From the NCBI RefSeq assembly GCF_018398935.1, contig NZ_CP074694.1, forward strand, positions 2,040,001 to 2,072,000: a stretch of DNA of 32,000 nt, written 5' to 3'. Of this stretch, positions 3,385 through 31,418 are shown in pieces (the stretch's first letter is position 1; every line of letters begins with the position of its first letter). The position numbers and the translations under genes are program-made. Source of the stretch: Telmatocola sphagniphila (GTDB taxonomy: Bacteria; Planctomycetota; Planctomycetia; Gemmatales; Gemmataceae). The notes beneath the pieces were generated by a model, which saw only the letters and a list, made by a program, of their open reading frames with translations, did no database searches and was not told the DNA's origin.

Positions 3385-3446
3385 GGGGCGGTGGGCTGCC
3401 GACGATGTTCCAGTCGCCGAGTTTGGGGAAGCGATGGCCGTGGTGA
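3385..3446 (+). pseudogene. 3'-terminal remnant of a terminase-large-subunit-like gene, abutting ISAs1 copy 1
   Basis: Translates GGGLPTMFQSPSLGKRWPW*, clearly paralogous in DNA and protein to the end of ORF 4189..4371 (GGLPTFFEFQSLGRRWAW*). It begins exactly at the IS boundary. Confidence 0.4.
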
Positions 3447-6931: not shown

Positions 6932-7566
6932 ATGAAGATTTTGATGTTCTTACTGGCGCTCGGGATCATCCCCTTTTCGTCCGCTCGGGCCGAAGAAATC
7001 AAGACCCTGCAGGTCATCGCCGCCGAACTGGCGATTGATGTCAAAGCGGTCCTGAACAAGGAAAACCAGCAGTCGGTACGGATCGGCCTGTTTAGTCCGC
7101 GCGGGGCGGCCCTCGGAGATGCCAATGCGGGGCTCGCGATTTGCGCCGCACTCGAAAAGGAACTGGGTAATACCGCGAATCCCGAAGCCACTTTTGAGAT
7201 CTCAGGGTATTTCCTTTTCATAGAAGCCCCCAAGGATACCCGGATTAAGCTGATCTCCGTCAAACCAGAATTAACGAATACAAAATCGGGCGAGACGGTA
7301 AAAGCCTTCCTACCTAAGGAACTCGTCATCGGCGGAAATACGGATATTGCACGAATATTGGGTGTCTCGGGTAGAGTACCTTCGGAGAAAGAAGGTGTAC
7401 AAGTGCCCTACACGGAGCGAAACCAGGAAATCCAGAAGATTCACAAACAGCCAACCACTTTCATTCATGGGGAAGATAAATCTCTCATCTCCTCCGGCCC
7501 AGATAGCCTTTACGATGTACAGATTCTCGTCGGCCCCTCCCCCGATTCGATGAGTCCCCGTCCCGC
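6932..7566 (+). pseudogene. 5' part of a secreted hypothetical-protein gene, interrupted by ISAs1 copy 2
   Basis: Signal peptide MKILMFLLALGIIPFSSARA. The frame runs into the IS, and the last 16 codons of ORF 6932..7603 are IS-derived. Removing 7567..8867 (the IS plus one TSD copy) rejoins the frame: ...SPRPA|KLIDGKAFVDIHKEELYQVRVINRSNNEVAVSLAIDGVDQF... Confidence 0.75.
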
Positions 7567-8857: not shown

Positions 8858-9103
8858 CCCGTCCCGCCAAGCTCATAGACGGTAAAGCCTTTGTTGATAT
8901 TCACAAGGAGGAGTTGTATCAGGTTCGGGTTATCAATCGTTCGAATAACGAAGTTGCAGTTTCTCTGGCGATTGATGGAGTGGACCAGTTCACCTTCAGC
9001 GATGTCAAAAAGGCGGATGGGAAGCCGAAATTTTCCCATTGGATTCTCGAAAAACAGGGTAATCCCAATCAAGAAATCATCATTAAAGGATGGCACAAAA
9101 ATC
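8858..9103 (+). pseudogene. 3' continuation of the interrupted secreted-protein gene, cut again by the ISL3 element
   Basis: In frame with 6932..7566 once the IS is removed. The final codons RLFRF* of ORF 8914..9120 are encoded by the ISL3 left inverted repeat starting at 9104. Confidence 0.7.
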
Positions 9104-11253: not shown

Positions 11254-12223
11254 GCCCCACCTATCGGGGAGCATCTCAATGGTAATCATTCAGGATAAAA
11301 AGCGTGTTTCAAATTGCAATCTCTTTAATGTATTTTACAAATCCACTGCGGCTAATCGCACAAAATATATTTAATAAAAACAATATACAATATCTAATTT
11401 TTATTCCATAAATGGTCTTTGCAAATCCAATATTTTCGAATTAATATATTTGAATGCTCGAATTATTTATTGATATGACCAAAATATTTTAAGAGCATCT
11501 GATTACCGATACACTCTGAACTGTTTGAAATTTCAACCCATCGAACCGCAAACCGGCTCCCGACCCGCCAAAAAATATCCCGATTCTTTGCCTCCCTGCG
11601 GATAGGAACTCGAGAGTAGCCCATTTCTCGATGGCCTGAGGTGAGCTTGTCCCACCTTAACGGCTCGAGTCTGCAGAGAGTAGCGGAAAAAAAAATTGGA
11701 ATCGTTCTCACTTTCCGTTTTGGCGACGGCGAACTCATTGGCACTGGGGCCGGTAGCCAACAGCCCATTTGCCAAGTCCCTGAAGTGGTTTCGAACAAAA
11801 ACCGAAAAACGATGCAAGAGGCTTTTTGATGGCGTCAGTTCCGTACCTTGCCGGCCTTCTTTTTAAATTTTTCCTCATTCGGAGCCAAAAAATCCGATGG
11901 ACACATGTTAATCCCGGTCGCTCCCCCCTATCCGTACAATAAGACAGCCGACTAACTTGATACTCAATGATGCCGACAGCGAAAAAGTGGATTTTGAACT
12001 TCCGGAAGGGCCACTTTGGGGTTGGGCATTCGACTTGGAGTCTCCCCTATTCATGGAAGCTGTTTTCGAAGCCCACCGCAGAGGCTCCCGATCACGGGGA
12101 AGAGAGATGCCCCAGTTGTATTATCGCTAATACACTTCTTATTTTCATCCGTGAGATTTCCCGGAACACTTCCACTTATTGTAGGAGTTTCGGAAAGCCT
12201 TCTGTGGTCCTTCTCGCGTCCAG

Positions 12224-12411
12224 GCCACCGGCGGCTCCAAGTTCTCGATCCTGCTCACCAAGTTCACCGTCCCCGAAGAGGTCTTTGGGCCGATCTCGAT
12301 TCAGGGACTGAAGGAAGACCGCTTCCAGAGAATCACCAACGGCAAACTCCCCGAAGCCGATTTCGCTTTCGTCGATGAAGTTTTCAAAGCTTCCTCGGCG
12401 ATCTTGAATAC
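12224..12411 (+). pseudogene. fragment (left part) of a paralog of the RavA/MoxR-like AAA+ ATPase gene at 25740..26870
   Basis: Translates [63 protein letters not shown]. The intact gene differs at 3 aa (TS for NG, I for V). Similarity starts abruptly near 12224 and is cut by IS66 at 12412. Confidence 0.85.
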
Positions 12412-13874
12412 GTAATAACTCACGCCCTGGCCAAGAGAGAAGGGGCTTTCTCTTGGGCAAAGTGAGCCTGTACCGCTTGAGTCATCCAGGCGAATGAGTT
12501 CCGTTTCTGCTGACGACAAGTTTCGATCGCGGTCAGCATTCGTTCAACGAACCGACTCCCCTGGGCCGATTGGGTTCCAAAGCATAACTTCCGCCAAATG
12601 ACCGCGGGCCGCAAAGCCCGCTCGGCGGCATTATTGGTGGGCTCTACTCCTTCGACATCGACGAACGTCCAAAGCCGAGCCCGGTATTTCCAGAGTTCGG
12701 AGCAAAAGCCACGCAGCTTCGGATCGAATTTTCCTCGCAAGAGCAAGGCTTCGACTTCGCTTCGTATGGGGATCATTTGTTCGCCGAACGCTTTATGGCT
12801 GAGGGTTCCGTCCCGAACGCGATTCCAGAGTTCGAACATCGCCCGAGTCTGTCGTTGCAAGTCGTGTCCTAAGCGTCGAGCGACCGGACAGGGGCGATCG
12901 ATGAGGCTTTGGAAGTCGCGGAGCAAATGAGCCCAGCACCACTGCAAGCGTCCGAAAGCCCAATACATCTTGGCCCGGTCGCAGCCTAGAACGCCGGTAA
13001 ATGAATCGCCCAGGAATTCGAGGACCACCTGGGCTTTGCGGCTGGTGCGGAGAGCGAAGACGCTGAAAGTCGCGGCTACAAAAGTCCAGGTCCAGGCTTT
13101 GGCGAGCCCTTCTTTGGTGGGCGATTCGTCGCCGTTGAGGACCGCTTCCCCAGGCAAGGCTAAGGCCAACTCCTGGTAGGGGGCTTGCAAGGCTTCGGCG
13201 GCTCGGTTCTGCAGTTTGATCATCCAGGAAGCCGAAGCCTCCTGACCCAGGATTTGTTCCAGAAACAGGCGCAGCGTCGTTTGGAGAGCCGGAAGCAGAC
13301 CATCAACAAAGCGGACAAAGCAACCAATCGAGGCCCGGCCATTCCGACAGGCACGCCTGGGGGTAATTCTCCGCAGGTGGTCTTGCCGCACGAACAGCGC
13401 AGACGATGGAGTTGATATTCCGTAATCGAAGGCTTGATTTCGGGAATCTCCCAGACCTGATGACGCAAAGGCTGGGGATCTGTTCCGTTCAAAGGTTCGC
13501 CACAACGGCGGCATTCGGCCGGTAAACAAACAATGACGCCGTCGCACTCGTGTGCGGAAACCAAAGAGCGTTCGTGTTTGGGATGCCCCGGTTGGCCGCC
13601 CGACTTCCGTTTGGCCTTCTTTTGGGCTTGCTTCGAAAGCTTGGCGTGGGGATGTTGCGTTGAAGGCGGCTTCGAAGAGTTGCTGGAATCCTTGCCGAGC
13701 TTCGCTTCCAGTTCGGCGATGCGGTTCAAAAGAATCCGCAGCACAGCCTGAACTTCCGGCGTTTGGCGAACAAGCCATTCTTCGCTGACAGACTCCATGC
13801 CCCGAGTATGAGATAATTAATTCCCCAGCGCAAGAGCAATTCCCGATAATCTCAGGACGAGGTGTGAGCGGTTA
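12412..13874 (-). mobile_element. IS66-family insertion sequence, single-ORF type (1463 bp), with 8-bp target-site duplication
   Basis: Ends GTAATAACTCACGCC... and (reverse complement) GTAACCGCTCACACC...; the GTAA start is typical of IS66. Perfect direct repeat TTGAATAC at 12404-12411 and 13875-13882, which is the ATPase codon context ..ILNT.. Confidence 0.9.
12420..13798 (-). CDS. IS66-family transposase, split into two frames (-1 offset)
   Basis: N-terminal ORF 13220..13798: leucine-zipper-like start, SSNSSKPPS, GGQPGHPKH, zinc-finger CRRCGEPL...CSCG, GPRLVALSALL. DDE part lies in the C-terminal portion of ORF 12420..13778: LNGDESPTKEG..WTWTF...LGCDRAKMY...WCWAHLLRDF...EPTNNAAERALRP. Junction is at RLSK / TTLRLFLEQILG (TTT run 13280-13282 on the + strand). 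Confidence 0.85.
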
Positions 13875-14142
13875 CTTGAATACTCTTCTGAAGATTCTCA
13901 ATGAACGGACCTTCGATGCCGGCGAAGGTTCCTTGCGCAAAGTCCCCTTGAAGCTCTGCGTGGCAGCCTCCAACGAATGGCCGGCCCCGGAGAGTGCCCA
14001 GGAACTGGCGGCCCTGTTCGATCGTTTCACTCTGCGCAAGAGTCTCTCCCCGATTCGCTCGCAGGCGGGTCGAAAGAGGCTGCTCTGGAATCGGGATCAT
14101 ACTCCCAAGGTCTCGGTACACCTGAAGCCGAGCGATCTGGAA
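13875..14142 (+). pseudogene. fragment (right part) of the AAA+ ATPase paralog
   Basis: Translates NTLLKILNERTFDAGEGSLRKVPLKLCVAASNEWPAPESAQELAALFDRFTLRKSLSPIRSQAGRKRLLWNRDHTPKVSVHLKPSDLE. It differs at 2 aa from the intact gene. Similarity ends at about 14142, where an IS66-like fragment begins. Confidence 0.85.
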
Positions 14143-14527
14143 TCCGAACAAACGGCCGGCTTACAGTCCACCGTCTGGCTCGGCGGCAAAATCGCCCGTT
14201 GCTTCTTGGCGTGCCCCGATTGGCCACCCCGATTCTTCTTCGATTTCTTCCGGGGTGGGGCTCGCTTCACTTCGGGACCGTCCGACGATGGGGGCTTCGA
14301 CGAATTGGAGGAATTCTGGTTCAGGCGTTCCTCGAGAGTTGCGATGCGTTGCTCGTACTGAGCTAAAATTTGACCGAATTCCGCGAAACGTTTAGCAATC
14401 CAAGCTTCCAAATCGGGAAGAACATCCTCGGGGATGCGACTGCGAAGTTCCGGTGGCAAGATTCCTTCCTGCTTCATCACAACAGTCTACTCGATCCCTA
14501 AATTTCTGGGAAGGTGTGAACGGATAC
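14143..14527 (-). mobile_element. truncated second IS66-like element (5' end and transposase N-terminus only)
   Basis: ORF 14097..14480 encodes an IS66-type N-terminus (LEERLNQNSSNSSKPPSSD...GGQSGHAKK) that stops making sense at about 14143. The end sequence GTATCCGTTCACACCTTCC (reverse complement of 14509-14527) resembles the other IS66 terminus. Confidence 0.6.
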
Positions 14528-16289: not shown

Positions 16290-17009
16290 ATGATTTTTTT
16301 TCGAATAGATAAATTTCGAAACCCTGGTTCCGCCGGGCTCGAACCCTCCGAGTCCGCCGTCGGCTCACTTAAAGGGAATAATGGATTGGTCAGGCTCTCC
16401 GACACTCCCACGCCTGTTTCTCTTCTCGGCCAGCTCCATCGCGCCCCATCCGACCCGCAGGCCTGGGAACGGTTTGTGAATCATTATGGACCCAAAATCC
16501 ATGCGTGGTGTCGGTCCTGGAATTTGCAGTACGCCGATGCCCAGGATATCACGCAAATCGTGCTGCTCAAAGTGGCCGCGCAGCTGAAAGAATTCGAATA
16601 TGATCCCCAGCGCAGTTTCCGCAGCTGGCTCAAAACGGTGACCTTTCATTCCTGGCGCGATCAGGCTCGCAAAGAGAACCGCGCTGCCTCCCCGCGATCG
16701 GAGGAAGCCCTGGTATTTCTGGAAGCCACCGAAGCCAAACAATCGCTGGCGCGCACTCTGGAAGAGGCCTTCGATGAAGAGCTGCTCGGTTTAGCGAGCG
16801 CTCGCGTGCGCCTGCGTGTCGCTCCGAAGACCTGGGAAGCCTTTCGACTCAGTTCACTCGAGCAGCTTCCCGGCGCTGTCGTGGCCGAGCGCCTCGGGAT
16901 GAAGGTCGCCATGGTCTATATTGCCCGCAGTCGGGTGCTGAAGCTGCTGCGTTCCGAATTGATCCAACTCGATCCGAGTCTAGGCGAAAACGAGAATCCG
17001 GATTCTTAG
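16290..17009 (+). CDS. ECF-type RNA polymerase sigma factor
   Basis: Region 2-like: PQAWERFVNHYGPKIHAWCRSW..DAQDITQIVLLKVAAQL..SFRSWLKTVTFHSWRDQ. Region 4 HTH: LPGAVVAERLGMKVAMVYIARSRVLKLL. Start is uncertain (ATG 16290 or TTG 16386). The stop TAG is immediately followed by the kinase ATG. Confidence 0.85.
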   Translation: MIFFRIDKFRNPGSAGLEPSESAVGSLKGNNGLVRLSDTPTPVSLLGQLHRAPSDPQAWERFVNHYGPKIHAWCRSWNLQYADAQDITQIVLLKVAAQLKEFEYDPQRSFRSWLKTVTFHSWRDQARKENRAASPRSEEALVFLEATEAKQSLARTLEEAFDEELLGLASARVRLRVAPKTWEAFRLSSLEQLPGAVVAERLGMKVAMVYIARSRVLKLLRSELIQLDPSLGENENPDS

Positions 17010-20000
17010 ATGAAAACCTGTCCCGATCAAAATGCTCTGACGCAGTTGCTCGAAGAGCAGTTGGCCCCCAACCGGCTCGAGGAGCTGCTCCAGCATATCG
17101 AACACTGTTTGAATTGTCAGAATCAACTCCAGGACCGGACGGACCAGGAAATGACCTCCTGGAGCCCGTTCTTTTCCCCGCTTCGCGAGAAGCCGGAACC
17201 AACTCCCGAGCAACCGACTTATCTTCCGGCCTTCCTCGAGTCCCACCGGCCTCCCCACTCCGCTTCTCCCCTCGATGCTCTTTCCGAGGCCCCCTGGCCT
17301 TCGGTCGACGGCTACGAACTTCTCCGAGTCTTAGGACGCGGAGGAAGCGGCGTTGTCTATGAAGCGCGGCAACGGACGCTCGACCGAGTCGTTGCCCTGA
17401 AACTGCTTCGCGCCGACTTAGTCCGCGATCCGCGGGTTCGAGAGCGGCTCCAACAGGAAGCGGCGATCCTCTCCCGGATGCAACACCCCAACATCGTGAG
17501 CGTCTTCGATTTCCTGGAGTCGGAGGGCTCTCCCTGCCTGGCTCTGGAATTGGTTCGGGGGGGGACGCTCGCGAGCTGGAGCGCTAAAACTCCGGTAGCG
17601 ACCCGGGTCGCCGTCGAAATCTTAATTCCCATCACGCGAGCCATCGAATACGCCCATTCCCTGGGCATCCTGCATCGGGATCTGAAACCCAGCAACGTAT
17701 TGCTAGCCACTTCCGAGACTGCGCCCCGGCCAAACTCCGAGAAATCGGGAATTCCTCCCGAAGCGATCAAGGTCACCGATTTTGGCTTGGCCAAATACTT
17801 TGGCAGCGCAGAAAATCTCGAACGCTCTTTGACCGAAACCGGGATGATCGTGGGTACCCCGTCCTACCTGGCCCCGGAACTCGCCAGCCAACCTTCCTCG
17901 AAGCTGGGCCCGGCCGCGGATATCTATTCGCTCGGCGCGATCTTGTATGAACTGCTCACCGGACGTCCGCCCTTCCAGGCCGACACCCCACTGAACACCC
18001 TACTGCTGGCAATTCAGGAAGAACCGCTTTCGGTGGCGCGCCTGCAACCCCAAGTTCCGCGCGATCTCGGGACGATCTGCATGAAGTGCCTGGAGAAAGA
18101 TCCGCGCAAGCGCTATGGCCAAGCCGAAGATTTGCGCAAAGACCTCGAGCGATTCCAAGCGGGGGAAAACATCCTGGCCCGCCCGCTGGGAACGCTGGAA
18201 AAAGCGACGAGACTCGTTCGGCGGCACCCGTCGCAATCACTATTGATCCTGACCCTGGGGCTGGTTTTGATCGGATCTTTGGCCGCCGTGGGGAATCAGT
18301 ATCAGAAGACCCGAGGGGCGCTTGGGGATCTGACCCAACGGACCCAATCCGAAGCCCGCGCCCACGAAGCCGCCGATCGCGCGCGGGAGCGATCGGAACG
18401 AGCCTCCCTGGAACTGCTTTTGGATCAAAGCGTGACGCTGTGCCAAAAAGACGATCTGGCGAGTGGGTTACAGGGGCTGGCCTCCGGACTCGAGCGGGCC
18501 GGCGCGGCCGATTTTCCCGATTTGAAATCGGTGTTGGCCAAGAATCTTCAAGCCTGGAAAAATCAAACGCTCCTTCCGAGAGTCAGTCCGCGCTTCGGGT
18601 CTTCGGTCACCTCGCTGGCGTTTGATAGTCGGGGACAAAAAATACTCGTCGGTCTGTGGGGTAACAAGGATCAAAAACCTGGCCCGGGCGAAGCCCGGCT
18701 CTGGGACGTGGCTACCTGGAAACCCCTGAGCCCCCCTCTGCCGCACCCGGGAGCCGTATTGGCCGTCGCCATGAGCCCGGACGATCGCTACCTGCTCACC
18801 GGGAGTTTCGACGGTTCGGTGAAACTCTGGGACAGCTCCTCGGGGCAACCGATCTGGGAATCTTCGCGGGAATTTCAACGCGTTTTCAGTGTGGCTTTTC
18901 GCCCGGATGGACGGCACTTTGCCGCGGCGGGACTTTCGAATGACCCGAAATTCCCCGGGGAGGCGCGGATTTGGAATTTGCTCTCAAAAGAGAGGGCCTT
19001 TCCGGCCATACGGCAGTCGGGAATCCTCACCTGCCTCTCGTATAGTCCCAATAGTCAGTGGCTGGTCACGGCGGGGAGTAGTTCGTGGGGAGAAGATCGA
19101 CTTCACTCCGCGGGAGAATGTCGTCAATGGAATGCCGATACCGGAACTCCGGTCGGTCCCGCTTTGATGCACTCGGGATTAGTTCGAAGCGCCGTCTATA
19201 GTCCGGAGGGGAATACGCTACTCACCGGAGGAGTGGACCAAGCGGTGATTTCTTGGAATCGTCAAACCGGTCAGCGTCAGCCTCCCTTGCTTCTCCAGGA
19301 GTTTGGAATTCAATCCTTAACGTGTTCGAAGGAGGGCCGCTTCCTCCTGAGTGGCGGCGGACGATCGGATAAAGAATCACCGGTCCAAAAAGCGGCCTGT
19401 CTCTGGGATGCCGAGACGGGAGCGCGCTTGATGGCCCCCTTAATCCAATCCGACGACGTGTCGGCGGTGGCCTTTCGACCCGAGCACCCTGCCTTTGCTA
19501 CCGGAGGCCGCGACGGCAAAGTCCAACTCTGGGAATTCGCGAGTCTTCTCCCGGCCTGGGAAAAACGCTACGCGACGCCGTTATCGGCCGTGTCGTATAG
19601 CCCAGATGGGCGATTTCTCGCCGTCGCCGGGGATCAGAAGAGTCCCGCTCGAGGCTTAATCGAACTTTTGGACGTCTCCGAGCCGAGTCGAACTTACCGC
19701 TTCGGTGAAGGCTGGGATCCGGTGGAGGCCCTCGCGTTCACGCCCGATAGCCGTAGCCTCGCCGTCAGTTATCGAGGAAACGCTCGGGTCGAACTCTACG
19801 AGGTCCCCTCGGGAAAAAGAATTCGGCCGCCGCTTCCGCACGCCGGAACGCCGCGCCAGCTCTCGTTTTCGCCCGATGGCCGTAAGCTGCTGGCGTTTAC
19901 CCCCGGGGCCGTCGGAGTCCTCTGGGATTTGACGTCTGGTCGGCCCCTTTGGGAATGTCAGCATCAAGGCAACCCCATTCAGGCGACGGCGTTGAGTCCC

Positions 20001-20582
20001 GACGCCAAAGTCCTGTTAACCGGAGGAAAAGATGGGGTGGTCCGATCCTACTCGGCCGAAAACGGCCAATTTCTGCGGGAACTGGCGCGCACTTCCGGAA
20101 CCATCCTTTCCTTGAATTTCCACGAGGATTCCCAGGAGTATTACGTCGGCGATGCAGAGTCTCATCTGTCGGTGGGGAATCTCGACTCGGAAGAACCGCC
20201 GAACCCGCTGTTATCGCATACCCGCTCGGCGGTGCAGAAGATTCTTCCCTTGAATTTTTCCCATCGCGTGCTGACCCTCACTCAAAACGCCTACAGTCAG
20301 TTCGGCGAAATTTGGATTTGGGATCTGTCCCAGAATAAAGCGGAAGTGAAGCAGGCTTGGGGCTTAAACGCCACAAAAGTGCTTTACAACGCTCCGACGC
20401 AGACTTTCCTCACCGCGGATGGCAATCGCAATTTACAACTGTGGGATGCGGTGACCGGGCGGACGATTGGGCCCGCCCGAAAACATCCGGGCCACATCAC
20501 CGGCTTTGACTTTGCCCCCGATGGAGCCAGCTACGCCGTCGTCGGGGAAAAGGGCTATCTCCGCATCTGGAAAACCCCCTGA
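17010..20582 (+). CDS. Ser/Thr protein kinase with N-terminal anti-sigma-like zinc-finger motif, one TM helix and a C-terminal WD40 array
   Basis: HIEHCLNCQ (H-x3-C-x2-C) in the first 40 aa. Kinase motifs GRGGSGVVYEA, VALK, HRDLKPSNVLL, DFGLAK, GTPSYLAPE. TM helix LLILTLGLVLIGSLAAVG. Many WD-like blades from about 18630: GSFDGSVKLWD, GGRDGKVQLWE, GGKDGVVRSY, LQLWDAVTG, YLRIWKTP. Confidence 0.9.
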   Translation: MKTCPDQNALTQLLEEQLAPNRLEELLQHIEHCLNCQNQLQDRTDQEMTSWSPFFSPLREKPEPTPEQPTYLPAFLESHRPPHSASPLDALSEAPWPSVDGYELLRVLGRGGSGVVYEARQRTLDRVVALKLLRADLVRDPRVRERLQQEAAILSRMQHPNIVSVFDFLESEGSPCLALELVRGGTLASWSAKTPVATRVAVEILIPITRAIEYAHSLGILHRDLKPSNVLLATSETAPRPNSEKSGIPPEAIKVTDFGLAKYFGSAENLERSLTETGMIVGTPSYLAPELASQPSSKLGPAADIYSLGAILYELLTGRPPFQADTPLNTLLLAIQEEPLSVARLQPQVPRDLGTICMKCLEKDPRKRYGQAEDLRKDLERFQAGENILARPLGTLEKATRLVRRHPSQSLLILTLGLVLIGSLAAVGNQYQKTRGALGDLTQRTQSEARAHEAADRARERSERASLELLLDQSVTLCQKDDLASGLQGLASGLERAGAADFPDLKSVLAKNLQAWKNQTLLPRVSPRFGSSVTSLAFDSRGQKILVGLWGNKDQKPGPGEARLWDVATWKPLSPPLPHPGAVLAVAMSPDDRYLLTGSFDGSVKLWDSSSGQPIWESSREFQRVFSVAFRPDGRHFAAAGLSNDPKFPGEARIWNLLSKERAFPAIRQSGILTCLSYSPNSQWLVTAGSSSWGEDRLHSAGECRQWNADTGTPVGPALMHSGLVRSAVYSPEGNTLLTGGVDQAVISWNRQTGQRQPPLLLQEFGIQSLTCSKEGRFLLSGGGRSDKESPVQKAACLWDAETGARLMAPLIQSDDVSAVAFRPEHPAFATGGRDGKVQLWEFASLLPAWEKRYATPLSAVSYSPDGRFLAVAGDQKSPARGLIELLDVSEPSRTYRFGEGWDPVEALAFTPDSRSLAVSYRGNARVELYEVPSGKRIRPPLPHAGTPRQLSFSPDGRKLLAFTPGAVGVLWDLTSGRPLWECQHQGNPIQATALSPDAKVLLTGGKDGVVRSYSAENGQFLRELARTSGTILSLNFHEDSQEYYVGDAESHLSVGNLDSEEPPNPLLSHTRSAVQKILPLNFSHRVLTLTQNAYSQFGEIWIWDLSQNKAEVKQAWGLNATKVLYNAPTQTFLTADGNRNLQLWDAVTGRTIGPARKHPGHITGFDFAPDGASYAVVGEKGYLRIWKTP

Positions 20583-22495: not shown

Positions 22496-23443
22496 CTACT
22501 TCTTGATCTTTTCCCACAGCCCAAGGATACCGCCGGCTACCAACAGGAGGACGAAGAAACGGCCCCAGCCGAGCTGATTCTGGATACTATCGTAGGCCCC
22601 CGCCAGACCTCGACGAGGCGCCGGCGGCAAAGTCCCCTGATTGGTACTTTTGAACTTGCTTGCTGCGTTTCGCGCGGCCTCACTCTGAAAGAGTTCAACG
22701 ATCGAAACGGGTTTCTCCAAGGCCATTCCCTCGACTCCGGTAAAGACCATATCGTCGATCTTCCAACCGCTGGATAGGATCAACCGAAAGTACCCCTCCA
22801 TTTTCTTTCTTTGGCCCACCTCCGAAAACCAGGTCGAGCCGCGAAAGCCTACCATTTTGATCCCCGGCTGGGGACCATCGGTTTCGCGGGTGAACTCGAA
22901 CTGGTCGTTGGGATCCTCGGGGGTTTGCTCCTTGTAAAGTTGTTCGATCCAGGTTTGCATCCGGGGTGTGGTGTAATTCTTAGCTTCGATCGGCGTTTTC
23001 GCCTCCTGCAATTTCTGGCAGACCTCCATGGGGGTATAAGGCCGTAACCATTCATTGACTTGATACCCCAGCCAGCCGAGAATCCCGAGCGTTCCGAGAG
23101 CCATGCCGAGGAAGATCGCCAGCGACAATCGATCGGGTGCGGGCGGGGAAGTGGGAAGGGTTGGAGATCCCGAGGTTGCATTCTTGGGGTAAGGGACGAG
23201 TGGTGCGGGGCTGTTCTGGAGAAGAGTGGGAGGTTTGGGAAGGGGCTTTTCCTCGAGCGTTCCGAAACCGGGGAACTGTCGTAACGGTTGCCACTCCTGA
23301 CCGCCGACCAGACTGGCGCGCGTGTCCCCATGGACCCGCCCGGCGGAAATCTCAGCGTGTACTTGTTCCACGGTAAAGGGACCCGTGGGCAAATCGGCGA
23401 TCAGGAGCCAGTATTGAACGGGGGCCAGAGAACTACTATTCAT
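22496..23443 (-). CDS. GYF_2 (DUF4339)-like domain membrane protein
   Basis: N-terminus QYWLLIADLPTGPFTVEQVHAEISAGRVHGDTRASLVGGQEWQPLRQFPGF fits the GYF_2 pattern. Proline-rich linker, then TM helices (LAIFLGMALGTLGILGWLG and FFVLLLVAGGILGLW). Confidence 0.6.
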   Translation of the reverse strand: MNSSSLAPVQYWLLIADLPTGPFTVEQVHAEISAGRVHGDTRASLVGGQEWQPLRQFPGFGTLEEKPLPKPPTLLQNSPAPLVPYPKNATSGSPTLPTSPPAPDRLSLAIFLGMALGTLGILGWLGYQVNEWLRPYTPMEVCQKLQEAKTPIEAKNYTTPRMQTWIEQLYKEQTPEDPNDQFEFTRETDGPQPGIKMVGFRGSTWFSEVGQRKKMEGYFRLILSSGWKIDDMVFTGVEGMALEKPVSIVELFQSEAARNAASKFKSTNQGTLPPAPRRGLAGAYDSIQNQLGWGRFFVLLLVAGGILGLWEKIKK

Positions 23444-23522: not shown

Positions 23523-23762
23523 ATGGTGAAACGAGAACGCATCCCCGGGATTCAAGAACGATTTGGCACCGCGGTGAAATTCCGACGCGAGAAATTGGGA
23601 CTCACGCAGGAAGATCTCGCCGCGGCCGCGGGCATCCACCGCACTTATTTGTCCGATGTGGAACGGGGCTCCCGCAATCTGAGTCTGGTGAATATCGAAA
23701 AGCTGGCCGCCGCTCTGGCTTGGAAGATCTCGGAACTTTTTGCCTACGTCGAACGAAGTTAA
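23523..23762 (+). CDS. XRE-family HTH regulator resembling restriction-modification controller (C) proteins
   Basis: LGLTQEDLAAAAGIHRTYLSDVERGSRNLSLVNIEKLAAAL parallels the C-protein pattern (..R.Y....ERG.RN.SL.NI.KLA.AL). 79 aa. Confidence 0.8.
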   Translation: MVKRERIPGIQERFGTAVKFRREKLGLTQEDLAAAAGIHRTYLSDVERGSRNLSLVNIEKLAAALAWKISELFAYVERS

Positions 23763-25159: not shown

Positions 25160-25441
25160 ATGCTCATTCCGATGACCGTTCCTGTTTCTATTCCCGTGCT
25201 GTCGCTCGAAGCTCGCCAGCAGGCGTTCGTGACGATTCTGCCCCTGTTGGAGACGAAGGCTCGTTTCGCCTTGCGAGATCTGGCCTCTCCGCACGATCGC
25301 GAAGATGCCGTGGCCGAAGTGGTCGCCCTGGCCTGGGAGCATTTCCGGCAATCCCGACCTTTGCCGGCCTCGCGTTTTATCCAGCAGATCCCACTGTTTA
25401 TCGCCACAGTACGACAACGCCTGAGCTCTTGCCCGGTCTAA
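25160..25441 (+). CDS. hypothetical protein (93 aa), first gene of the operon
   Basis: ATG at 25160 with AGGAG 7 nt upstream. The helix-rich segment REDAVAEVVALAWEHF is only vaguely reminiscent of sigma-70 region 2. No firm assignment. Confidence 0.5.
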   Translation: MLIPMTVPVSIPVLSLEARQQAFVTILPLLETKARFALRDLASPHDREDAVAEVVALAWEHFRQSRPLPASRFIQQIPLFIATVRQRLSSCPV

Positions 25442-25470
25442 ATCTTCCTCCCTTTCAAAAAGGATTTCTG

Positions 25471-25665
25471 ATGTCCCGACGCGTTTTGCTCGAAGAGTTT
25501 CATCTGTCGTTTCTGATCCTCGCCGATACGGCCGAAGCCGAAGTGCAGAGAATCCGTCGGCAATTGAATCGCACCCGCTTCCAGGCCCTGCTCCGAAGAA
25601 CTCTGCTGCATTTCTTCCGGAAGTATCGGGCTCTCGATTCGGTGGTCTTTAAGCTGTCTCGGTAG
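25471..25665 (+). CDS. hypothetical small basic protein (64 aa)
   Basis: ATG at 25471 with AAGGA upstream. Arg-rich helical sequence; no recognisable family. Confidence 0.45.
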   Translation: MSRRVLLEEFHLSFLILADTAEAEVQRIRRQLNRTRFQALLRRTLLHFFRKYRALDSVVFKLSR

Positions 25666-25739
25666 AGCCGCCTCGCGGTGTCTACCCAATTGTCTTCTCT
25701 CTATTCGCCTAATTTCCAATCTCACACAGGAATAATCCC

Positions 25740-26870
25740 ATGAAAACCCTCGTTCCCGACTGCGCGGCCCTGCAGGCCCATTTCGCTTTGCTCCGTTCGG
25801 AATTGGCTTCTGGCCTGATCGAACGCGACGAAGAAATCGATCTCTGCCTCACCGCCCTGATCGCCCAAGAGCATCTGCTCTTGGTCTCGCCTCCGGGCTG
25901 TGCCAAATCGCTGCTGCTCGATTCCCTCCTGAAAGCCACCGGCGGCTCCAAGTTCTCGATCCTGTTAACCAAGTTCACCGTCCCCGAAGAGGTCTTCGGT
26001 CCCATATCCATACAGGGACTGAAGGAAGACCGCTTCCAGAGGATCACCACGAGTAAACTGCCCGAAGCCGACTTCGCCTTCATCGATGAAGTCTTCAAGG
26101 CTTCCTCGGCGATCCTGAATACCCTTCTGAAGATTCTCAATGAACGGACCTTCGATGCCGGCGAAGGTTCTTTACGCAAAGTCCCCCTCAAGCTTTGCGT
26201 CGCGGCTTCCAACGAATGGCCGGCTCCGGAGAGTGCTCAGGAACTTGCCGCGCTGTTCGACCGCTTCACTCTGCGCAAGAGTTTATCCCCGATTCGCTCG
26301 CAGGCGGGTCGGAAGAAGCTGCTCTGGAATCGGGAGCATACTCCCAAGGTCTCCGTGCACTTGAAACCGAGCGATCTGGAAGCCGCCCGCCGCTATGCCC
26401 GAGAATTGCCCTGGTCGATTCCGGCTCAGGAAGCCTTTGAAACCATTCTCAAAGACCTGGCTAAAGAAGGCGTTCAGCCGGGCGATCGCCGCCAGTTCAA
26501 GGCGGTCGGCATCGTGCAGGCGTATGCCTTTTTGCAGGGGGCCGAGCAGGTCGAACCGGAACATCTGGAAGTAGCCGCGCATGTTCTTTGGGACGATCCG
26601 AAAGAACAGCCCGCCAAGGTCGCTCAAGTGATTGCCCGCATCGCCAATCCCATCGGCATGCGGTTGAATCAGCTTCTGTTAGAAGTCGAGCAGGTTCTCT
26701 CCTCGACCGATGTCCGCAAGCTGCCCGAGACGGCCAAAGCCGCCGCCAAGCTCGGCGAGATCGACAAGCAGCTGAGTGAATTGAAGTCCAATGACCGGGT
26801 CACCCGAACCCGGAACTACGTTCGCGAACAGCTCCGACAACTCAAACTCGCCTCGCTGGAGGCGATCTAA
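25740..26870 (+). CDS. RavA/MoxR-like AAA+ ATPase
   Basis: Walker A-like [26 protein letters not shown], Walker [26 protein letters not shown]. These are colinear with E. coli RavA: GPPGIAKS / TRFSTPEEVFGPLSIQAL / [25 protein letters not shown]. Confidence 0.9.
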   Translation: MKTLVPDCAALQAHFALLRSELASGLIERDEEIDLCLTALIAQEHLLLVSPPGCAKSLLLDSLLKATGGSKFSILLTKFTVPEEVFGPISIQGLKEDRFQRITTSKLPEADFAFIDEVFKASSAILNTLLKILNERTFDAGEGSLRKVPLKLCVAASNEWPAPESAQELAALFDRFTLRKSLSPIRSQAGRKKLLWNREHTPKVSVHLKPSDLEAARRYARELPWSIPAQEAFETILKDLAKEGVQPGDRRQFKAVGIVQAYAFLQGAEQVEPEHLEVAAHVLWDDPKEQPAKVAQVIARIANPIGMRLNQLLLEVEQVLSSTDVRKLPETAKAAAKLGEIDKQLSELKSNDRVTRTRNYVREQLRQLKLASLEAI

Positions 26871-26886
26871 CCTCTAGGAAAAAACC

Positions 26887-28257
26887 ATGAATGCCGAAGA
26901 ACTCCGTAAACTCTTCGATCTCGATCGCCCGTTACCGCCAACAGCTTCTAATGCCGAAACTTCTTCCCCTTTCCATTCCGCTCCGTCTCCCTCTGCTCCT
27001 TCCGCGAATCCAACCGCACTGCAGGTCGATCCCTGGGGGCTGCGTCGGGGCAGCGATCTGCTGCGGGATTCTCCCCGCTTGCAAACGTTCGCCTTGGACG
27101 AGTACGCCATCGCGGATTTTCACACGGCGGCTTTTGAACCGGAACCGCAGCTGTTGGAGGATTGCCAGGATCCGGCCCGCCGGGCTTTCCTGGTCGAGCT
27201 GTTCCAGACCCCGGAGTACCAAGCGTTGCACGCCGGGACCCGTTTGGATGAAGTGTCCTCCGAGATTGCCACCCTGCACTTCGCTGAACAGTTCGCTGCT
27301 CTGCGGAATGCTTCTGCCACGGCCGAACCCGAGATCGCCACCTTAAAAGCGGTCAGCCGGGCGGTGCTGGCCGCTCGGGAAGAGGTCGACCAGTGCCGGG
27401 AAGCGATTACTGCTCTCGGCGGCGGGCTCGGTCCGGGAACGCCGGGCTCCGTCGATCCTAAGGCGATCGCTCAACTGTTTCAGCGGGTCCGTCAGGACCC
27501 CACGTTGCGAAGGATCTGCGAACTGGCCGGTCGTTATCGGCGACTGGCCCAGTCGAGCCAGCGTCGCAAATGTGCGCACGGTCAGGACGACTTGGTCGGA
27601 GTGACTACCTCCGGTGATTTGGCCCAACTGCTGCCGCACGAGTTGGTCCGCTTGGGAATTCAAGAGTTGGAACTGGATACCCTGCGGCGTCTGGCCGAAA
27701 GGCAGTGCCTGGCCCGGGACTACCAGTCCTTGGAACCGGTGGGCAAAGGGCCGATCGTGGTGGTCATCGATGAATCGGGATCGATGGCTGGGGATAAAGT
27801 GCAAACGGCCAAAGCTCTGGCTTTGGCCTTAGCCTGGATCGCCCGGCAGCAGCGTCGCTGGTGTGGTTTGATCGCCTATTCGGGCGATACCGGCGAACGG
27901 CTGTTGTCTTTGCCGCCGTCCCGCTGGGACGAATCGGAAGTGCTCGACTGGCTGGGAGCCTTCCTGGGCGGTGGTTCGACCTTGGATGTTCCGATTGTCG
28001 AACTGCCCTGGATGGTGGAACAGCTCTGGGCTCCGGCGGGCATTACCGATGTCTTGATCCTGACCGATGCCATCTGCTCGATTCCTCTGGAACTGCAGCA
28101 GAAGTTCCTGGCCTGGAAGCGCTCGGTTTCGGCGCGGGTGATTTCGTTGGTCTTAGCCGAGACCGCGGGTGACCTGGCGGCGCTAAGCGATGAAGTCCAT
28201 CTGGTCCAGTCGCTCGAAGTCACCGAGACCGCCCTCGGTTCTGTACTGTCGATCTAA
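26887..28257 (+). CDS. vWA-domain protein (ViaA/CoxE-like partner of the ATPase)
   Basis: MIDAS-type core GPIVVVIDESGSMAGDKVQTAKALALALAWIA ... LIAYSGD ... GGGSTLDVP ... VLILTDA in the C-terminal half. Starts 16 nt after the ATPase stop, with its own SD. Confidence 0.85.
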   Translation: MNAEELRKLFDLDRPLPPTASNAETSSPFHSAPSPSAPSANPTALQVDPWGLRRGSDLLRDSPRLQTFALDEYAIADFHTAAFEPEPQLLEDCQDPARRAFLVELFQTPEYQALHAGTRLDEVSSEIATLHFAEQFAALRNASATAEPEIATLKAVSRAVLAAREEVDQCREAITALGGGLGPGTPGSVDPKAIAQLFQRVRQDPTLRRICELAGRYRRLAQSSQRRKCAHGQDDLVGVTTSGDLAQLLPHELVRLGIQELELDTLRRLAERQCLARDYQSLEPVGKGPIVVVIDESGSMAGDKVQTAKALALALAWIARQQRRWCGLIAYSGDTGERLLSLPPSRWDESEVLDWLGAFLGGGSTLDVPIVELPWMVEQLWAPAGITDVLILTDAICSIPLELQQKFLAWKRSVSARVISLVLAETAGDLAALSDEVHLVQSLEVTETALGSVLSI

Positions 28258-28281
28258 TCCGGCTTTTTCATTTGTTGTGAA

Positions 28282-28326
28282 AGCCTGCGGATCTTCTTTT
28301 GAGAAAGGTTCCGCAGGCTTTTTTCT
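28282..28326 (+). terminator. intrinsic-terminator-like hairpin inside the operon (after the vWA gene)
   Basis: AAGCCTGCGGA (28282-28292) pairs with TCCGCAGGCTT (28310-28320), followed by TTTTTCTGTTT. Confidence 0.6.
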
Positions 28327-28362
28327 GTTTATTTCTCAGTCTTGAAGTGAAAGGAACTCTCT

Positions 28363-29241
28363 ATGAGTGCTTTGATCAAAACCAACCACTTGCCTAAGGT
28401 GACCCCGGGTGTTCGCCTATTGGGTGAGATCATCACCTGGACCGCATCCGGGGCCAGCGTCCGGCACAGTGACTTGATCCGAGCCCTGAAGGAAGTCGGA
28501 CTCGATGAAAGCGTGGCCCGGGAGCTGGCGCCCCGGCACGCTTTTGCCCGGGCCTGTCGCAAGCTGTCGGAAGCCCGAATTATTCGGCAGATTGCCGAAG
28601 ATGAAGTCTCGATTCAATTCCAGTTCACCCAGGAATCGAAACAGGGGGACCGCTTCAGCTACGACTTCGAAACTCTTCTGACGCTGACCAAGAAGACCGG
28701 GCAGGTGCACTGCGACAAACGGGAACTGGCTCTGCTAGCTCAGGAAGAGCTGGATCGCTGCATTGCCGTGCGGACCGGCAGCGATATTACCCGGATTGTG
28801 CAAAAGCTCTTCGAACGGGAAGCCGATCTTTTCCCGATTCGACCCCAGGGCGGAGCCTACTTCGTGCCGCAGCTGCATGCCGGCTTCATCGATCGGGTGC
28901 AGAGCTTGTTGAAGCAGCTGAATGGTCAGATGCTGCGCTTCCCGGTGCCGGAAGGAACCGCCAGCGGCGATGTCTCAGTGAAAGAAGCAGTCGCCTCGGG
29001 ATTAGCGTCTTTGATTGCCGAACACGAGGAAGCGATCGAATCGTTTGGCGAAGACACCCGGCCCGATACGGTGGAGCGAGCCGCCGAGCGAATTCGCAAC
29101 ACCAAGTTCAAAGTCGAAGCCTACGCCGCGTTGCTGGCCGATCAAAAGCATCAGTTGGAACTCTCTCTGGCTACGGCCTCCCGAAAGCTCCGTCAGAAAG
29201 TTGAAAGTCTGGCCGCCGAGCGGGAAGCGGTGCTGGTCTAG
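28363..29241 (+). CDS. hypothetical protein (292 aa), no family recognised
   Basis: Uninterrupted ORF with an SD, and composition like its neighbours. Features: IRPQGGAYFVP motif mid-protein, and an acidic/helical C-terminal third ending in coiled-coil-like KHQLELSLATASRKLRQKVESLAAE. Confidence 0.75.
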   Translation: MSALIKTNHLPKVTPGVRLLGEIITWTASGASVRHSDLIRALKEVGLDESVARELAPRHAFARACRKLSEARIIRQIAEDEVSIQFQFTQESKQGDRFSYDFETLLTLTKKTGQVHCDKRELALLAQEELDRCIAVRTGSDITRIVQKLFEREADLFPIRPQGGAYFVPQLHAGFIDRVQSLLKQLNGQMLRFPVPEGTASGDVSVKEAVASGLASLIAEHEEAIESFGEDTRPDTVERAAERIRNTKFKVEAYAALLADQKHQLELSLATASRKLRQKVESLAAEREAVLV

Positions 29242-29337
29242 TTCGACTGGCTTTTCAATTGATTCGCAGTTCTGCTGATTCGCCCTTTGCCCACCTACTC
29301 GCCCTTTCACTCCAACACGATTTACCGGGAGAAAACC

Positions 29338-30684
29338 ATGATTCATTTGCAGCGTCGGCAAGTCCGGCAGTTACGCAGCCTATTCAAGAAATTGGGAGCG
29401 ACCCGCTGCCCAGCTCCGACTAGCCTCTTGCTCCAGACCGATCCGAGCGGACTTACGATTCAGGGCTCGGTCGGCGAAGTCACGGCGATTTACCGTCTGC
29501 CGGGCTCCTTTGCCGAAGAACAGATGACCATTCCTTTTGCCGTGTTCAATGATACCGCCGGCTCGGACGACAGCGTCGTCGAGATTGTGGCCCTGGTCCA
29601 TCAGAAGTTGCGGGTGGCTTGGAGTTCGGGCCCGATGCCGCAGGTTCGCGAGTACGAGATTCTCGCCAGCGTCGAAAGCTTGCCTTTACCCGATGTCTGG
29701 ACGCCGATGGACCTGCGTCTGCGGGAAGCATTAGCCGAGGCGATGAAGACGGCTAGCCCCGAAGCGACGCGGTACGCCGCCAATTACATCCAGTTGCGCG
29801 GCCGAACGGGCGAGGTCATCGGTACCGACTCCAGGCAACTGTTCATCGAATCGGGATTCGCTTTTCCTTGGGACGATGAGGTCTTGATCCCCCGGTCTGG
29901 ACTCTTCGCTGCGGAAGAACTCTCGGCGGACAGACTGGAAATCGCTCGTACAAAAACGCACCTCTGGTTCCGCTTGGGGTCTTGGATGATCGCCTTGCTA
30001 ATCGCCTCGGAAGCCCGTTATCCCGAAGTCCATCGAGCGATTCCTGCCTCTTTGGAAGCGACGCGCTGGAGGATAGACCCGGGAGAATCGCACGGGTTGG
30101 CTCAGTGCTTGAAGCAGTTGCCGGGCGAGAAAGATCCGCATCGACCGGTGACGGTGGAACTCAACGGTCACGTTGCGATTCGGGCTCGAGGAACCGAAAG
30201 TCTGCAAACGACCGAAGTTCACCTCAATCGCTCTCAGGTGGAAGGGAATCCGATGAGTCTCGCCTTGGATCGAGCTTACCTGCAGCGAGCCTTGCAGTTG
30301 GGTTTTTCGGAGTTCCAGATCGTTCATCCCGATAAACCGATAGTCTGCCAGCAGGGCAGCCGAAGGTTCGTCTGCATGCCGCTGGGTAAAACCTCGGTGA
30401 TCGCGGCTTGTCCAGAGGCCTTGCAGGTGGAGTTGGGAGAGACTGCCCGAGCGATGAGCGGCAAAAATACTTCGACGAGAATACGAGATCGGGCCAGGAA
30501 CTTCAGTTCGGCGATTCTGGCCGGTCTTCTGGAAGAAGCGAACTCCCTGCAATCGGTAGTTCAAGCCCTGCTGGAGCGATTGACCTATTTAAGCGAAGAG
30601 CTCCATCGGTTGCTTCCTCGCCGGAAATCGGAGCGCATCGGTGTAAATACTCCGTCCGAAGCCATGATCGATCCATTTCTTTAA
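29338..30684 (+). CDS. divergent DNA sliding-clamp (DnaN-fold)-like protein with a C-terminal helical extension (448 aa)
   Basis: ATG at 29338 is preceded by GGGAGAAAACC. TRYAANYIQLRGRTGEVIGTDSRQLFIE..DDEVLIPRSGLF, EARYPEVHRAIP, LALDRAYLQRALQLG and RRFVCMPL line up in order with the DnaN blocks TRYYLNGMLFETEGEELRTVATDGHRLAV..SVIVPRKGV, GRFPDYRRVLP, IGFNVSYVLDVLNAL and YVVMPMRL. Confidence 0.7.
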   Translation: MIHLQRRQVRQLRSLFKKLGATRCPAPTSLLLQTDPSGLTIQGSVGEVTAIYRLPGSFAEEQMTIPFAVFNDTAGSDDSVVEIVALVHQKLRVAWSSGPMPQVREYEILASVESLPLPDVWTPMDLRLREALAEAMKTASPEATRYAANYIQLRGRTGEVIGTDSRQLFIESGFAFPWDDEVLIPRSGLFAAEELSADRLEIARTKTHLWFRLGSWMIALLIASEARYPEVHRAIPASLEATRWRIDPGESHGLAQCLKQLPGEKDPHRPVTVELNGHVAIRARGTESLQTTEVHLNRSQVEGNPMSLALDRAYLQRALQLGFSEFQIVHPDKPIVCQQGSRRFVCMPLGKTSVIAACPEALQVELGETARAMSGKNTSTRIRDRARNFSSAILAGLLEEANSLQSVVQALLERLTYLSEELHRLLPRRKSERIGVNTPSEAMIDPFL

Positions 30685-30734
30685 CCGTTCGAAACTTCGA
30701 TTCTTTTTCATTCCAACCCTATCGGAGAAAATGC

Positions 30735-30890
30735 ATGAGTGCGAAGCACAAATTGAATGCGGCCTATATGTCGGGCTCGTTTCTGATAGCGATCTTAGTC
30801 GGAGCTTTCTTTCAATCGACGGCGATTGTCCTGGGTACGCTGGCCTTCTTGCTCTTCATGGATTTCGTTGCGGGCAATATCCGCAAATAG
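30735..30890 (+). CDS. small hydrophobic membrane protein (51 aa)
   Basis: ATG at 30735 with GGAG about 8 nt upstream. SGSFLIAILVGAFFQSTAIVLGTLAFLLFMDFVAG is almost entirely hydrophobic. A strong terminator follows directly. Confidence 0.6.
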   Translation: MSAKHKLNAAYMSGSFLIAILVGAFFQSTAIVLGTLAFLLFMDFVAGNIRK

Positions 30891-30896
30891 TCCCCG

Positions 30897-30945
30897 CCTC
30901 CCGCGTTCCGAAGAGTGTTCAGGAACGCGGGAGGTATATTTCGAT
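30897..30945 (+). terminator. intrinsic terminator closing the operon
   Basis: 13-bp perfect GC-rich stem: CCTCCCGCGTTCC (30897-30909) pairs with GGAACGCGGGAGG (30922-30934). 12-nt loop, then TATATTTCGATT. Confidence 0.75.
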
Positions 30946-31418
30946 TCAACAAAAACAAAGAGACTCCTTGCTTTAGCTATCAGCGATCCTCGGATGGACT
31001 GCGGATTTAATCCGGAACAACCGAGTGTTCAGCGGACGGTCGCCGGTTCGAGTCCAATTCGGGGAGCTTTTCACTTTTCAGCGAAAAATGGTCGAAGAAC
31101 GAGTTAACGGAACCGTATTTTTTCTCTCCCCCAAGTTAGCCGGTTTTCCCAGTGGTTTTTTCAGATTTTCGCACTTTATTCAATTCTCCATTTCGAAAAC
31201 TGAAATTCAGGTACCAGGCAAGAACCGTCGGTTTCGTTTCGCACCCTTCAAGTTTTTTGCGGAAACTCTCAAAGCCTCTTTTTTACGCTGCAATCCAGTT
31301 AACGCGTGCATGTTACTCCCTTGAAGACCCCTTCAGCTTTTCTGTTTGGCTACTGTCCAAAAAAAACGTTACAATTTCTATGCCGATAGAACCCCACAAT
31401 CGATGGACGAAGTTCGAA

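Follow-up and report, generated by a model that had tools for sequence, protein, structure and literature searches.

A MoxR ATPase, a vWA protein and a DUF6744 protein beside a divergent sliding clamp: a probable backbone part of an integrative element family in Planctomycetota

We analysed a 32,000-nt stretch of the genome of Telmatocola sphagniphila (Planctomycetota; contig NZ_CP074694.1, positions 2,040,001 to 2,072,000 of the forward strand), referred to as the window throughout, and in particular a block of seven genes at 25160-30890. In the following, genes 1 to 7 denote the seven plus-strand open reading frames (ORFs) of this block, while the trio denotes its MoxR ATPase, von Willebrand factor A (vWA) and DUF6744 genes. 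The cluster probably belongs to the conserved backbone that serves replication/recombination and establishment in an integrative, phage-like family of planctomycete elements, in which the trio would be of the chaperone type and the clamp the element's own. A maintenance or replication module of an integrated element had been named as the second choice in an earlier interpretation of the letters, here called the sequence-only reading, and it is this choice that the evidence favours. The block would consist of two separable functional parts, a portable three-gene module and a DnaN-type clamp belonging to the element. Its features are:

25160-25441, plus strand: gene 1, 93 aa, truncated sigma-70-region-2-like protein with a weak Sigma70_r2 match
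25471-25665, plus strand: gene 2, 64 aa, conserved, function unassigned
25740-26870, plus strand: gene 3, 376 aa, MoxR-clade AAA+ ATPase, RavA-like
26887-28257, plus strand: gene 4, 456 aa, ViaA-like vWA protein with a complete MIDAS motif (metal-ion-dependent adhesion site)
28279-28322, plus strand: spacer hairpin between the vWA and DUF6744 genes, terminator-like, then a T-run (-25 kcal/mol, z -4.4)
28363-29241, plus strand: gene 5, 292 aa, DUF6744 (PF20529)
29338-30684, plus strand: gene 6, 448 aa, divergent beta sliding clamp (DnaN-like) with a C-terminal extension of ~80 aa
30735-30890, plus strand: gene 7, 51 aa, hydrophobic protein
30896-30935, plus strand: closing GC-rich hairpin (-31.5 kcal/mol, z -6.6)

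Gene 3 matches the Pfam families bpMoxR (7.8e-51), AAA_5 and AAA_lid_8, the phage family PHROG 19600 (7.6e-66) and the NCBIfam RavA model (6e-56), the last over residues 7-327 of the 498 residues of RavA. The C-terminal part of RavA is absent, and the Walker A (SPPGCAKS) and Walker B (FIDE) motifs can be read in the sequence. Gene 4 is matched by NCBIfam ViaA (3.6e-21), with its vWA/MIDAS region aligned to ViaA residues 244-444, by Pfam VWA_2 and by PHROG 24053 (1e-18), and carries the MIDAS motif DESGS...TDA, of the pattern DxSxS...TD. The vWA domain lies at the C-terminus and ends at residue 456, with no effector domain after it, and the vWA proteins of 19 related loci have no added domains. 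The assignment of genes 3 and 4 to a RavA/ViaA-type pair, made earlier from the letters, is upheld by these matches and the intact Walker and MIDAS motifs.

As RavA and ViaA are the best named matches, and the order of ATPase and vWA genes is that of Escherichia coli RavA-ViaA, the pair might be taken for a host housekeeping chaperone, serving the maturation of respiratory or metallo-enzymes and placed beside a clamp paralogue by chance. We consider this very improbable. Both proteins score far under the NCBIfam equivalog cut-offs, with 190 bits against 681 for RavA (NF010054) and 76 bits against 500 for ViaA (NF008230), and the RavA C-terminal region is missing. Moreover, the genome contains four copies, homologues are found in phage and plasmid genomes, and there are no metabolic neighbours. 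Judged by these scores and by the missing C-terminal region, the block is not an orthologue of RavA-ViaA, from which it also differs in its multi-copy state on mobile elements and in its DUF6744 partner.

The 292-aa product of gene 5, which the sequence-only reading could not place, is now assigned to DUF6744 (Pfam PF20529). The match has an E-value of 1.5e-10 and 41 bits, above the gathering threshold of 27, and covers residues 19-284; NCBI likewise names the product a DUF6744 family protein. The AlphaFold2 (AF2) model, with a mean predicted local distance difference test score (pLDDT) of 87, has no fold match in the PDB; with E-values of 7e-15 to 6e-12, the same fold is found in proteins of uncultured tailed phages and of HVTV-1, a tailed virus of haloarchaea. 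We read the secondary structure of the model as a winged-helix-like N-terminal half, a central alpha/beta region and a C-terminal helical hairpin or coiled-coil, and gene 5 also has a weak Pfam match to a PaaX-like winged helix-turn-helix. We infer that DUF6744 binds DNA. The family comprises 1592 representatives of clusters at 50% identity, with the motifs AFxRA and P.R..GG.YF.P conserved family-wide. A loop with the sequence ADLF, invariant in the planctomycete members, was considered as a clamp-binding motif and rejected, as it is absent from Bacillales members. No paper on DUF6744 was found in the literature searched.

For gene 6, which had been described as colinear with DnaN, a structural search with the AF2 model and a profile search both confirm the clamp fold. 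The model (pLDDT 84) shows three clamp domains and an extension of ~80 aa that contains a long helix. The top 50 Foldseek matches in the PDB are all DnaN, with E-values of ~1e-21 to 8e-20 and template modelling (TM) scores, normalised to the target, of ~0.72-0.77, while the identity to the solved DnaN structures is only 16-19%. A profile of the clamp family finds DnaN in the PDB at 6.5e-9, with vaTDgrQL aligned to VATDGHRL, and the alignment covers the TDxRQL and RFP..viP motifs. In addition, the protein matches PHROG 947, a phage processivity factor family (1.3e-7). Gene 6 hence shares with DnaN and the phage beta-clamps the predicted three-domain fold and the motifs TDG(H/R)(R/Q)L and RFP(D/E)...(V/I)P. 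Unlike DnaN, it has no Pfam match, the DnaN models included, has the long C-terminal extension, belongs to a mobile-element backbone and evolves much faster than its neighbours. Its surroundings are not those of dnaA-dnaN-recF; the neighbours encode MoxR, vWA, DUF6744 and a kinase, and the genome contains four paralogues. In most members of the clamp family (L001-L055; L numbers denote related loci), the protein ends in a basic stretch followed by SL(R/K)QLxL, which resembles the beta-clamp-binding motif QLxLxL. In the window clamp (its end at 30560-30684) and in the T. sphagniphila paralogues, DPF(L/I) is found at the end instead, or the tail is missing.

The NCBI/GenBank annotation has the identical seven genes (KIH39_08285-08315). 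They are co-directional, separated by 29, 74, 16, 105, 96 and 50 nt, and each start is preceded by a Shine-Dalgarno sequence of the AGGA/GGAG type, so that ORFs and gaps match exactly the layout given by the sequence-only reading. Its closing GC-stem hairpin is also found, as a very stable fold, yet one poor in T-tract, and its call of a small membrane protein stands for the hydrophobic gene 7. The single operon that it proposed does not fare as well: the block is probably not one simple operon, because the strong terminator-like hairpin and its T-run lie between genes 4 and 5. The spacer concerned (28258-28362 in the window; equivalents in L025-L136) is 60-200 nt long, and in most of 57 distinct related loci it contains long GC-rich hairpins of locus-specific sequence, followed by a TTCGTTTCC-like tract; by a strict count the hairpin is present in 23 of the 57. 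The hairpin looks like a conserved terminator or attenuator that divides the block into a MoxR-vWA and a DUF6744-clamp part.

The genome of T. sphagniphila holds four intact copies of the block consisting of gene 2, ATPase, vWA, DUF6744 and clamp, plus a relic of the ATPase. The sequence-only reading had inferred a multi-copy module from what it saw as one copy and a decayed second ATPase at 12.2-14.1 kb; the multi-copy state and the relic are real, while the number of intact copies has to be raised to four. Among these, gene 2, ATPase, vWA and DUF6744 are 92-98% identical (gene 2 alone 94-98%), gene 7 is identical in two copies, and gene 1 is a singleton in the genome at the 90% level. The clamps are 95%, 80% and 68-71% identical. 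They begin to diverge past residue ~180, most strongly in the C-terminal extension, a positional, mosaic pattern that fits recombination break-points inside the clamp gene. Diversifying selection on a clamp surface was considered, and the paralogue alignment gives this mosaic pattern instead. The relic is made up as follows:

12223-14146, plus strand: ATPase relic, matching gene 3 nucleotides ~25935-26385, split by an IS66-family element
12412-13876: IS66-family element; its transposase at 12420-13778, minus strand (Pfam DDE_Tnp_IS66)

The two halves (12223-12411 and 13877-14146) match gene 3 with 85-92% identity by tblastn and 87-90% as DNA repeats. In the alignments, the insertion shows a CTTGAATAC target duplication and GTAA... 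insertion-sequence (IS) ends.

Whether the core genes co-occur elsewhere, a check proposed in the sequence-only reading, was followed in metagenomes, where 80 contigs were recovered with the DUF6744 alignment; ratios count the loci with enough flanking sequence. The genes are strongly linked. The vWA gene is directly upstream of DUF6744 in 39 of 42 loci and the ATPase gene upstream in 21 of 23, while the clamp follows DUF6744 within 2.5 kb in 29 of 31, and in every one of the 17 loci that extend at least 3.5 kb further downstream. Over 19 loci with all four genes, the median pairwise identity is 67% for the ATPase, 66% for the vWA protein, 66% for DUF6744 and 44% for the clamp.

The four genes do not form an indivisible unit, though. 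No clamp lies within 10 kb of the trio in the planctomycete locus L046 or in chromosomal islands of Paenibacillus and Virgibacillus. In these two Bacillales the gene order is DUF6744, bpMoxR, vWA, once beside RadC and once with a GmrSD_N gene after it. Conversely, a scan with the clamp alignment over one genome per species, in which T. sphagniphila did not turn up, gave 41 loci, almost all from Planctomycetota, and most of these clamps stand with another AAA+ module. Their backbone runs from a sigma-like gene through DUF1257, DUF2997, an AAA+ protein of ~497 aa, a 325-aa and an 82-aa protein and small ORFs to the clamp, which is followed by a DUF3072-like gene, a PD-(D/E)XK nuclease, in some loci an ATP-dependent ligase, and finally an XRE regulator. 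The alternative module comprises DUF1257, DUF2997, the 497-aa classical AAA+ protein (PHROG 8638, 8e-82) and proteins of 137, 325 and 82 aa; it is present in most planctomycete clamp loci (L001-L043; for example 5158-9460 of L005) and rearranged in three Verrucomicrobiales loci. A literature search for DUF2997 and DUF1257 yielded nothing but unrelated mentions from cyanobacteria and plastids.

In 30 loci the sequence reaches at least 7 kb beyond the clamp on its upstream side; 22 of these have the 497-aa AAA+ module, one has MoxR and none has both, so that one or the other is found in 23. The trio-type elements retain the remaining backbone; L044, for instance, has DUF1257 just upstream of MoxR. 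As no locus has both and the backbone is shared, the trio and the 497-aa AAA+ module are mutually exclusive occupants of one slot. The small genes of the window block also recur in this family. Gene 1 corresponds to the N-terminal part of the 197-241-aa, sigma-70-like backbone protein encoded in L001, L033, L036 and L046, and its homologue in L051 has a Sigma70_r2 match at 2e-10. Homologues of gene 2 are found in L021, L024, L044 and several metagenome loci, and those of gene 7 downstream of the clamp in L003, L033 and L065.

This arrangement raises the question of whether the trio acts on the clamp itself. It would then load, unload or remodel the divergent ring on element DNA, DUF6744 would be the subunit that targets DNA or binds the clamp, and in sister elements the alternative module would do likewise. 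The tight order of DUF6744 and clamp, their position on the same side of the conserved hairpin, and the presence of either AAA+ module, never both, upstream of the clamp speak for such a role, as do a weak match of the alternative AAA+ protein to the phage clamp-loader family PHROG 168 (6e-6) and a Brevibacillus plasmid that likewise has dnaN near its trio. Set against this are the clamp-free trio loci and the position of MoxR outside the clamp-loader clade; the PHROG 168 match is limited to the generic P-loop region. The 325-aa protein of the alternative module has no detectable homology to DUF6744 (hhalign probability 0.1%), and no clamp-binding motif is conserved throughout the DUF6744 family. 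Finally, within one genome the trio is 92-98% identical while clamps are 68-80% identical, which argues against tight co-evolution. Direct clamp handling by the trio is less likely than a backbone role with a chaperone-type trio, and we regard it as rather doubtful. A more specific version is a little more doubtful still: here the trio would be a clamp-handling machine that does not belong to the canonical clamp-loader clade, and the alternative AAA+ module would have solved the same task independently.

Mobile-element relatives support the preferred assignment to an element backbone. The features of a mobile element found here are a multi-copy state, a patchy distribution and phage or plasmid homologues of backbone genes, with matches to the phage families PHROG 19600, 24053, 947, 8638, 192 and 1392. 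Trio-type planctomycete elements carry upstream a GP88-family protein and a DnaQ/ExoX-like exonuclease that matches PHROG 192, 'DNA polymerase exonuclease subunit' (2e-41); in L055, DUF6094, a PAPS reductase and an SNF2 helicase are also encoded upstream. In L051, a contig of 18.9 kb classed as viral in IMG/VR, the clamp is directly followed by DUF2924 and a large serine recombinase, and the same contig encodes the sigma-like protein, RusA, an SF2 helicase, Prim-Pol/PriCT and a ParB-methylase.

Outside the phylum, a 101-kb plasmid of Brevibacillus marinus has all three trio homologues together (ATPase 35%, vWA and DUF6744 27% identical), next to dnaN (5.5 kb away), DUF6094 and a DEAD/DEAH helicase. 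In the Moorella phage MTATph1, an ATPase homologue (36% identical) is followed by a 493-aa gene, and the region encodes ribonucleotide reductase, a Holliday junction resolvase and UvsX. No DUF6744 match was obtained in the phage collection by tblastn, though a profile search recovered a homologue in this phage, 0.7 kb upstream (hmmsearch 7e-8). MoxR-vWA pairs are conserved in the backbones of pCAR1, R478, Rts1, SXT and R391 (PMC2642839). Bacillus phage 0305phi8-36 has such a pair too, and an 8.1-kb deletion that takes out both genes, along with two tRNA genes and six further genes without known function, leaves the phage viable but with a growth defect (PMC3357382). In an archaeal virus, a MoxR-vWA pair is needed for the assembly of tails (cited in PMC7824862).

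The same company could point to an anti-defence or establishment module, in which a host factor is remodelled or neutralised by the trio soon after entry, the clamp being no more than a replication gene that lies next to it. Genes typical of the early or leading regions of plasmids and phages accompany the trio, among them RadC, the DUF6094 methyltransferase-like protein with an SNF2/DEAD helicase, PAPS reductase, an SOS-response-associated peptidase, DUF6573 and DUF4258. The deletion in phage 0305phi8-36 that includes MoxR and vWA, viable but of lowered fitness, also fits this explanation. This evidence is guilt by association alone, the associated genes vary by lineage, and no match to a known anti-defence family was found. 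We think this explanation unlikely.

The sequence-only reading had preferred a conflict system, that is, a MoxR-vWA defence or abortive-infection module with a clamp-like ring that senses or acts on invading DNA. There are grounds for it: the Pfam family bpMoxR was built from the MoxR-vWA ternary conflict systems (Kaur, Burroughs, Iyer and Aravind 2020, PMC7159879), planctomycetes carry such systems, the trio of L046 stands amid a DNA methylase, a MORC-like ATPase, a REase-like (restriction endonuclease-like) protein and a helicase gene, and the Paenibacillus trio is followed by a GmrSD_N gene. Divergence is also faster in the clamp, at a median identity of 44%, than in the other three genes, at 66-67%. 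With the ternary systems the block shares the adjacent MoxR and vWA core and a conserved third gene. This third gene is DUF6744, however, and not VMAP, iSTAND or FtsH; the vWA protein is fused to neither a beta-propeller nor a C-terminal effector domain, and the trio is uniformly conserved, lacking the effector variability of those systems. None of the seven proteins has a significant match in PADLOC-DB 2.0 (best E 0.02). The neighbours are replication and recombination genes, the trio is found in a large phage genome of lytic type and on a plasmid, and the mosaic divergence of the clamp paralogues fits recombination break-points better than a diversifying sensor surface.

By its domain composition, the block is thus not a member of the ternary conflict systems, and the preference for a conflict system with a clamp sensor is not supported; we give it a low probability. 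The locus is not evidence for a new immune system. The more cautious statement of the same reading, that this is not a described defence system, agrees with the PADLOC result and with the literature searched, in which DUF6744 is not mentioned. The flanks of the clamp-free locus L046 (1-20867) contain a DNA methylase/HhH-GPD fusion, a MORC-like HATPase_c_3 protein, DUF6573, DUF6166, the REase-like protein and a 1208-aa DEAD/ResIII helicase, and look like a defence island or an anti-defence region.

For the preferred backbone role, a mechanism can be outlined. By analogy with the MoxR-vWA pairs studied so far, all of which are listed in PMC7159879, the trio is most likely a chaperone that uses ATP to assemble or remodel its client. 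The MoxR-clade AAA+ ATPase would be the motor and the ViaA-like vWA protein the adaptor, whose MIDAS site may grip an acidic peptide of the client. The element would provide this client, a protein or nucleoprotein complex; DUF6744 would be either the client itself or the partner that targets DNA. The clamp probably tethers DNA enzymes of the host or the element to element DNA. We infer its partners from related elements, where the candidates are the DnaQ-like exonuclease, the ATP-dependent ligase, the PD-(D/E)XK nuclease and Prim-Pol. Taken as a whole, the block would work in the manner of a MoxR-vWA chaperone pair of mobile elements joined to a DnaN that the element itself encodes.

Several observations weigh against assigning the block to an element backbone. 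The biochemical role of the trio is drawn purely from analogy. Beside the copy in the window there is no tRNA, recombinase, primase, virion or conjugation gene, nor do att-like direct repeats flank the cluster, so that this copy may be a remnant or a domesticated block. No virion, structural, transfer or conjugation gene was found within 10 kb on either side in any related locus examined. By tblastn, neither the phage nor the plasmid collection yields a match to the clamp, and IMG/VR holds few relatives. Four nearly identical intact copies could, in addition, reflect selection for a host-beneficial function.

Further features of the window lie upstream of the block:

22496-23443, minus strand: GYF-domain protein, 315 aa (Pfam GYF_2)
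23523-23762, plus strand: XRE-type helix-turn-helix regulator, 79 aa, linked to the element

A GYF homologue that clusters with the window gene recurs on the opposite strand beside an XRE gene in the trio/clamp loci L055 and L129. It is located 5-7 kb downstream of the clamp there and upstream of gene 1 in the window, and the GYF-domain protein probably belongs to the same element. In L002, L044, L025 and many metagenome loci, the clamp has an XRE homologue of 66-77% identity downstream of it, likewise at 5-7 kb. At 16290-20582, between the ATPase relic and the GYF/XRE pair, the end of a 239-aa ORF abuts the start of a 1190-aa Ser/Thr kinase-WD40 protein (17009/17010); the XRE gene of L002 is also followed by a WD40 protein. 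After the closing hairpin, a Ser/Thr kinase gene begins at ~31380, which we take to be a host gene. Just past the cluster, at 30985-31060, the string GGTTCGAGTCC resembles a tRNA T-loop and might be an old attachment-site remnant; as a tRNA it was rejected, as neither ARAGORN nor Rfam finds one.

Generally, the window is rich in insertion sequences. Besides the IS66 element these are two inverted, 100% identical IS copies of 1299 bp (2090-3388 and 7563-8861), each encoding a 353-aa DDE_Tnp_1 transposase, and an ISL3-family element whose transposase is spread over two overlapping ORFs (9157-10005 and 10002-10514), probably by a frameshift. The identical pair brackets 4.2 kb with a planctomycete cytochrome-like gene (5120-6898) and looks like a composite transposon.

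The backbones of plasmids, integrative and conjugative elements and large phages, such as pCAR1, SXT/R391 and 0305phi8-36, have long been seen to contain MoxR-vWA pairs, and we know of no client for them. We compared the block with orf66/orf63 of 0305phi8-36, with ORF101/ORF103 of pCAR1 and the relatives of the latter in R478, Rts1, SXT and R391, and with the tail-assembly pair of the Acidianus two-tailed virus. Like these, it has adjacent MoxR-clade AAA+ and vWA genes in the non-structural, DNA-metabolism part of the element; the ATPase of 0305phi8-36 is 32% identical to gene 3, with its vWA gene next in order. Unlike them, it has DUF6744 as a third conserved partner, as in the Moorella phage and the Bacillales, and in planctomycetes the module is fixed beside a private beta-clamp. 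The role of such pairs (0305phi8-36, the pCAR1 group, Acidianus two-tailed virus) is unknown or chaperone-like.

To our knowledge, little is known of mobile DNA in Planctomycetota, and a literature search on planctomycete mobile elements found nothing specific. In the literature searched, we found no description of DUF6744 as a member of such a trio, of the fixed pairing of the trio with a private clamp in planctomycete elements, or of the swap between modules. These findings provide leads: DUF6744 is a conserved third partner of MoxR-vWA pairs from Planctomycetota to Bacillota, with its fold also in archaeal viruses; the trio is locked beside a private, fast-evolving beta-clamp in one large lineage; and a non-homologous AAA+ module can take its slot. 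The result offers a concrete set of proteins with which the function of mobile-element MoxR systems may be probed, and outlines an undescribed, widespread family of mobile elements in planctomycetes.

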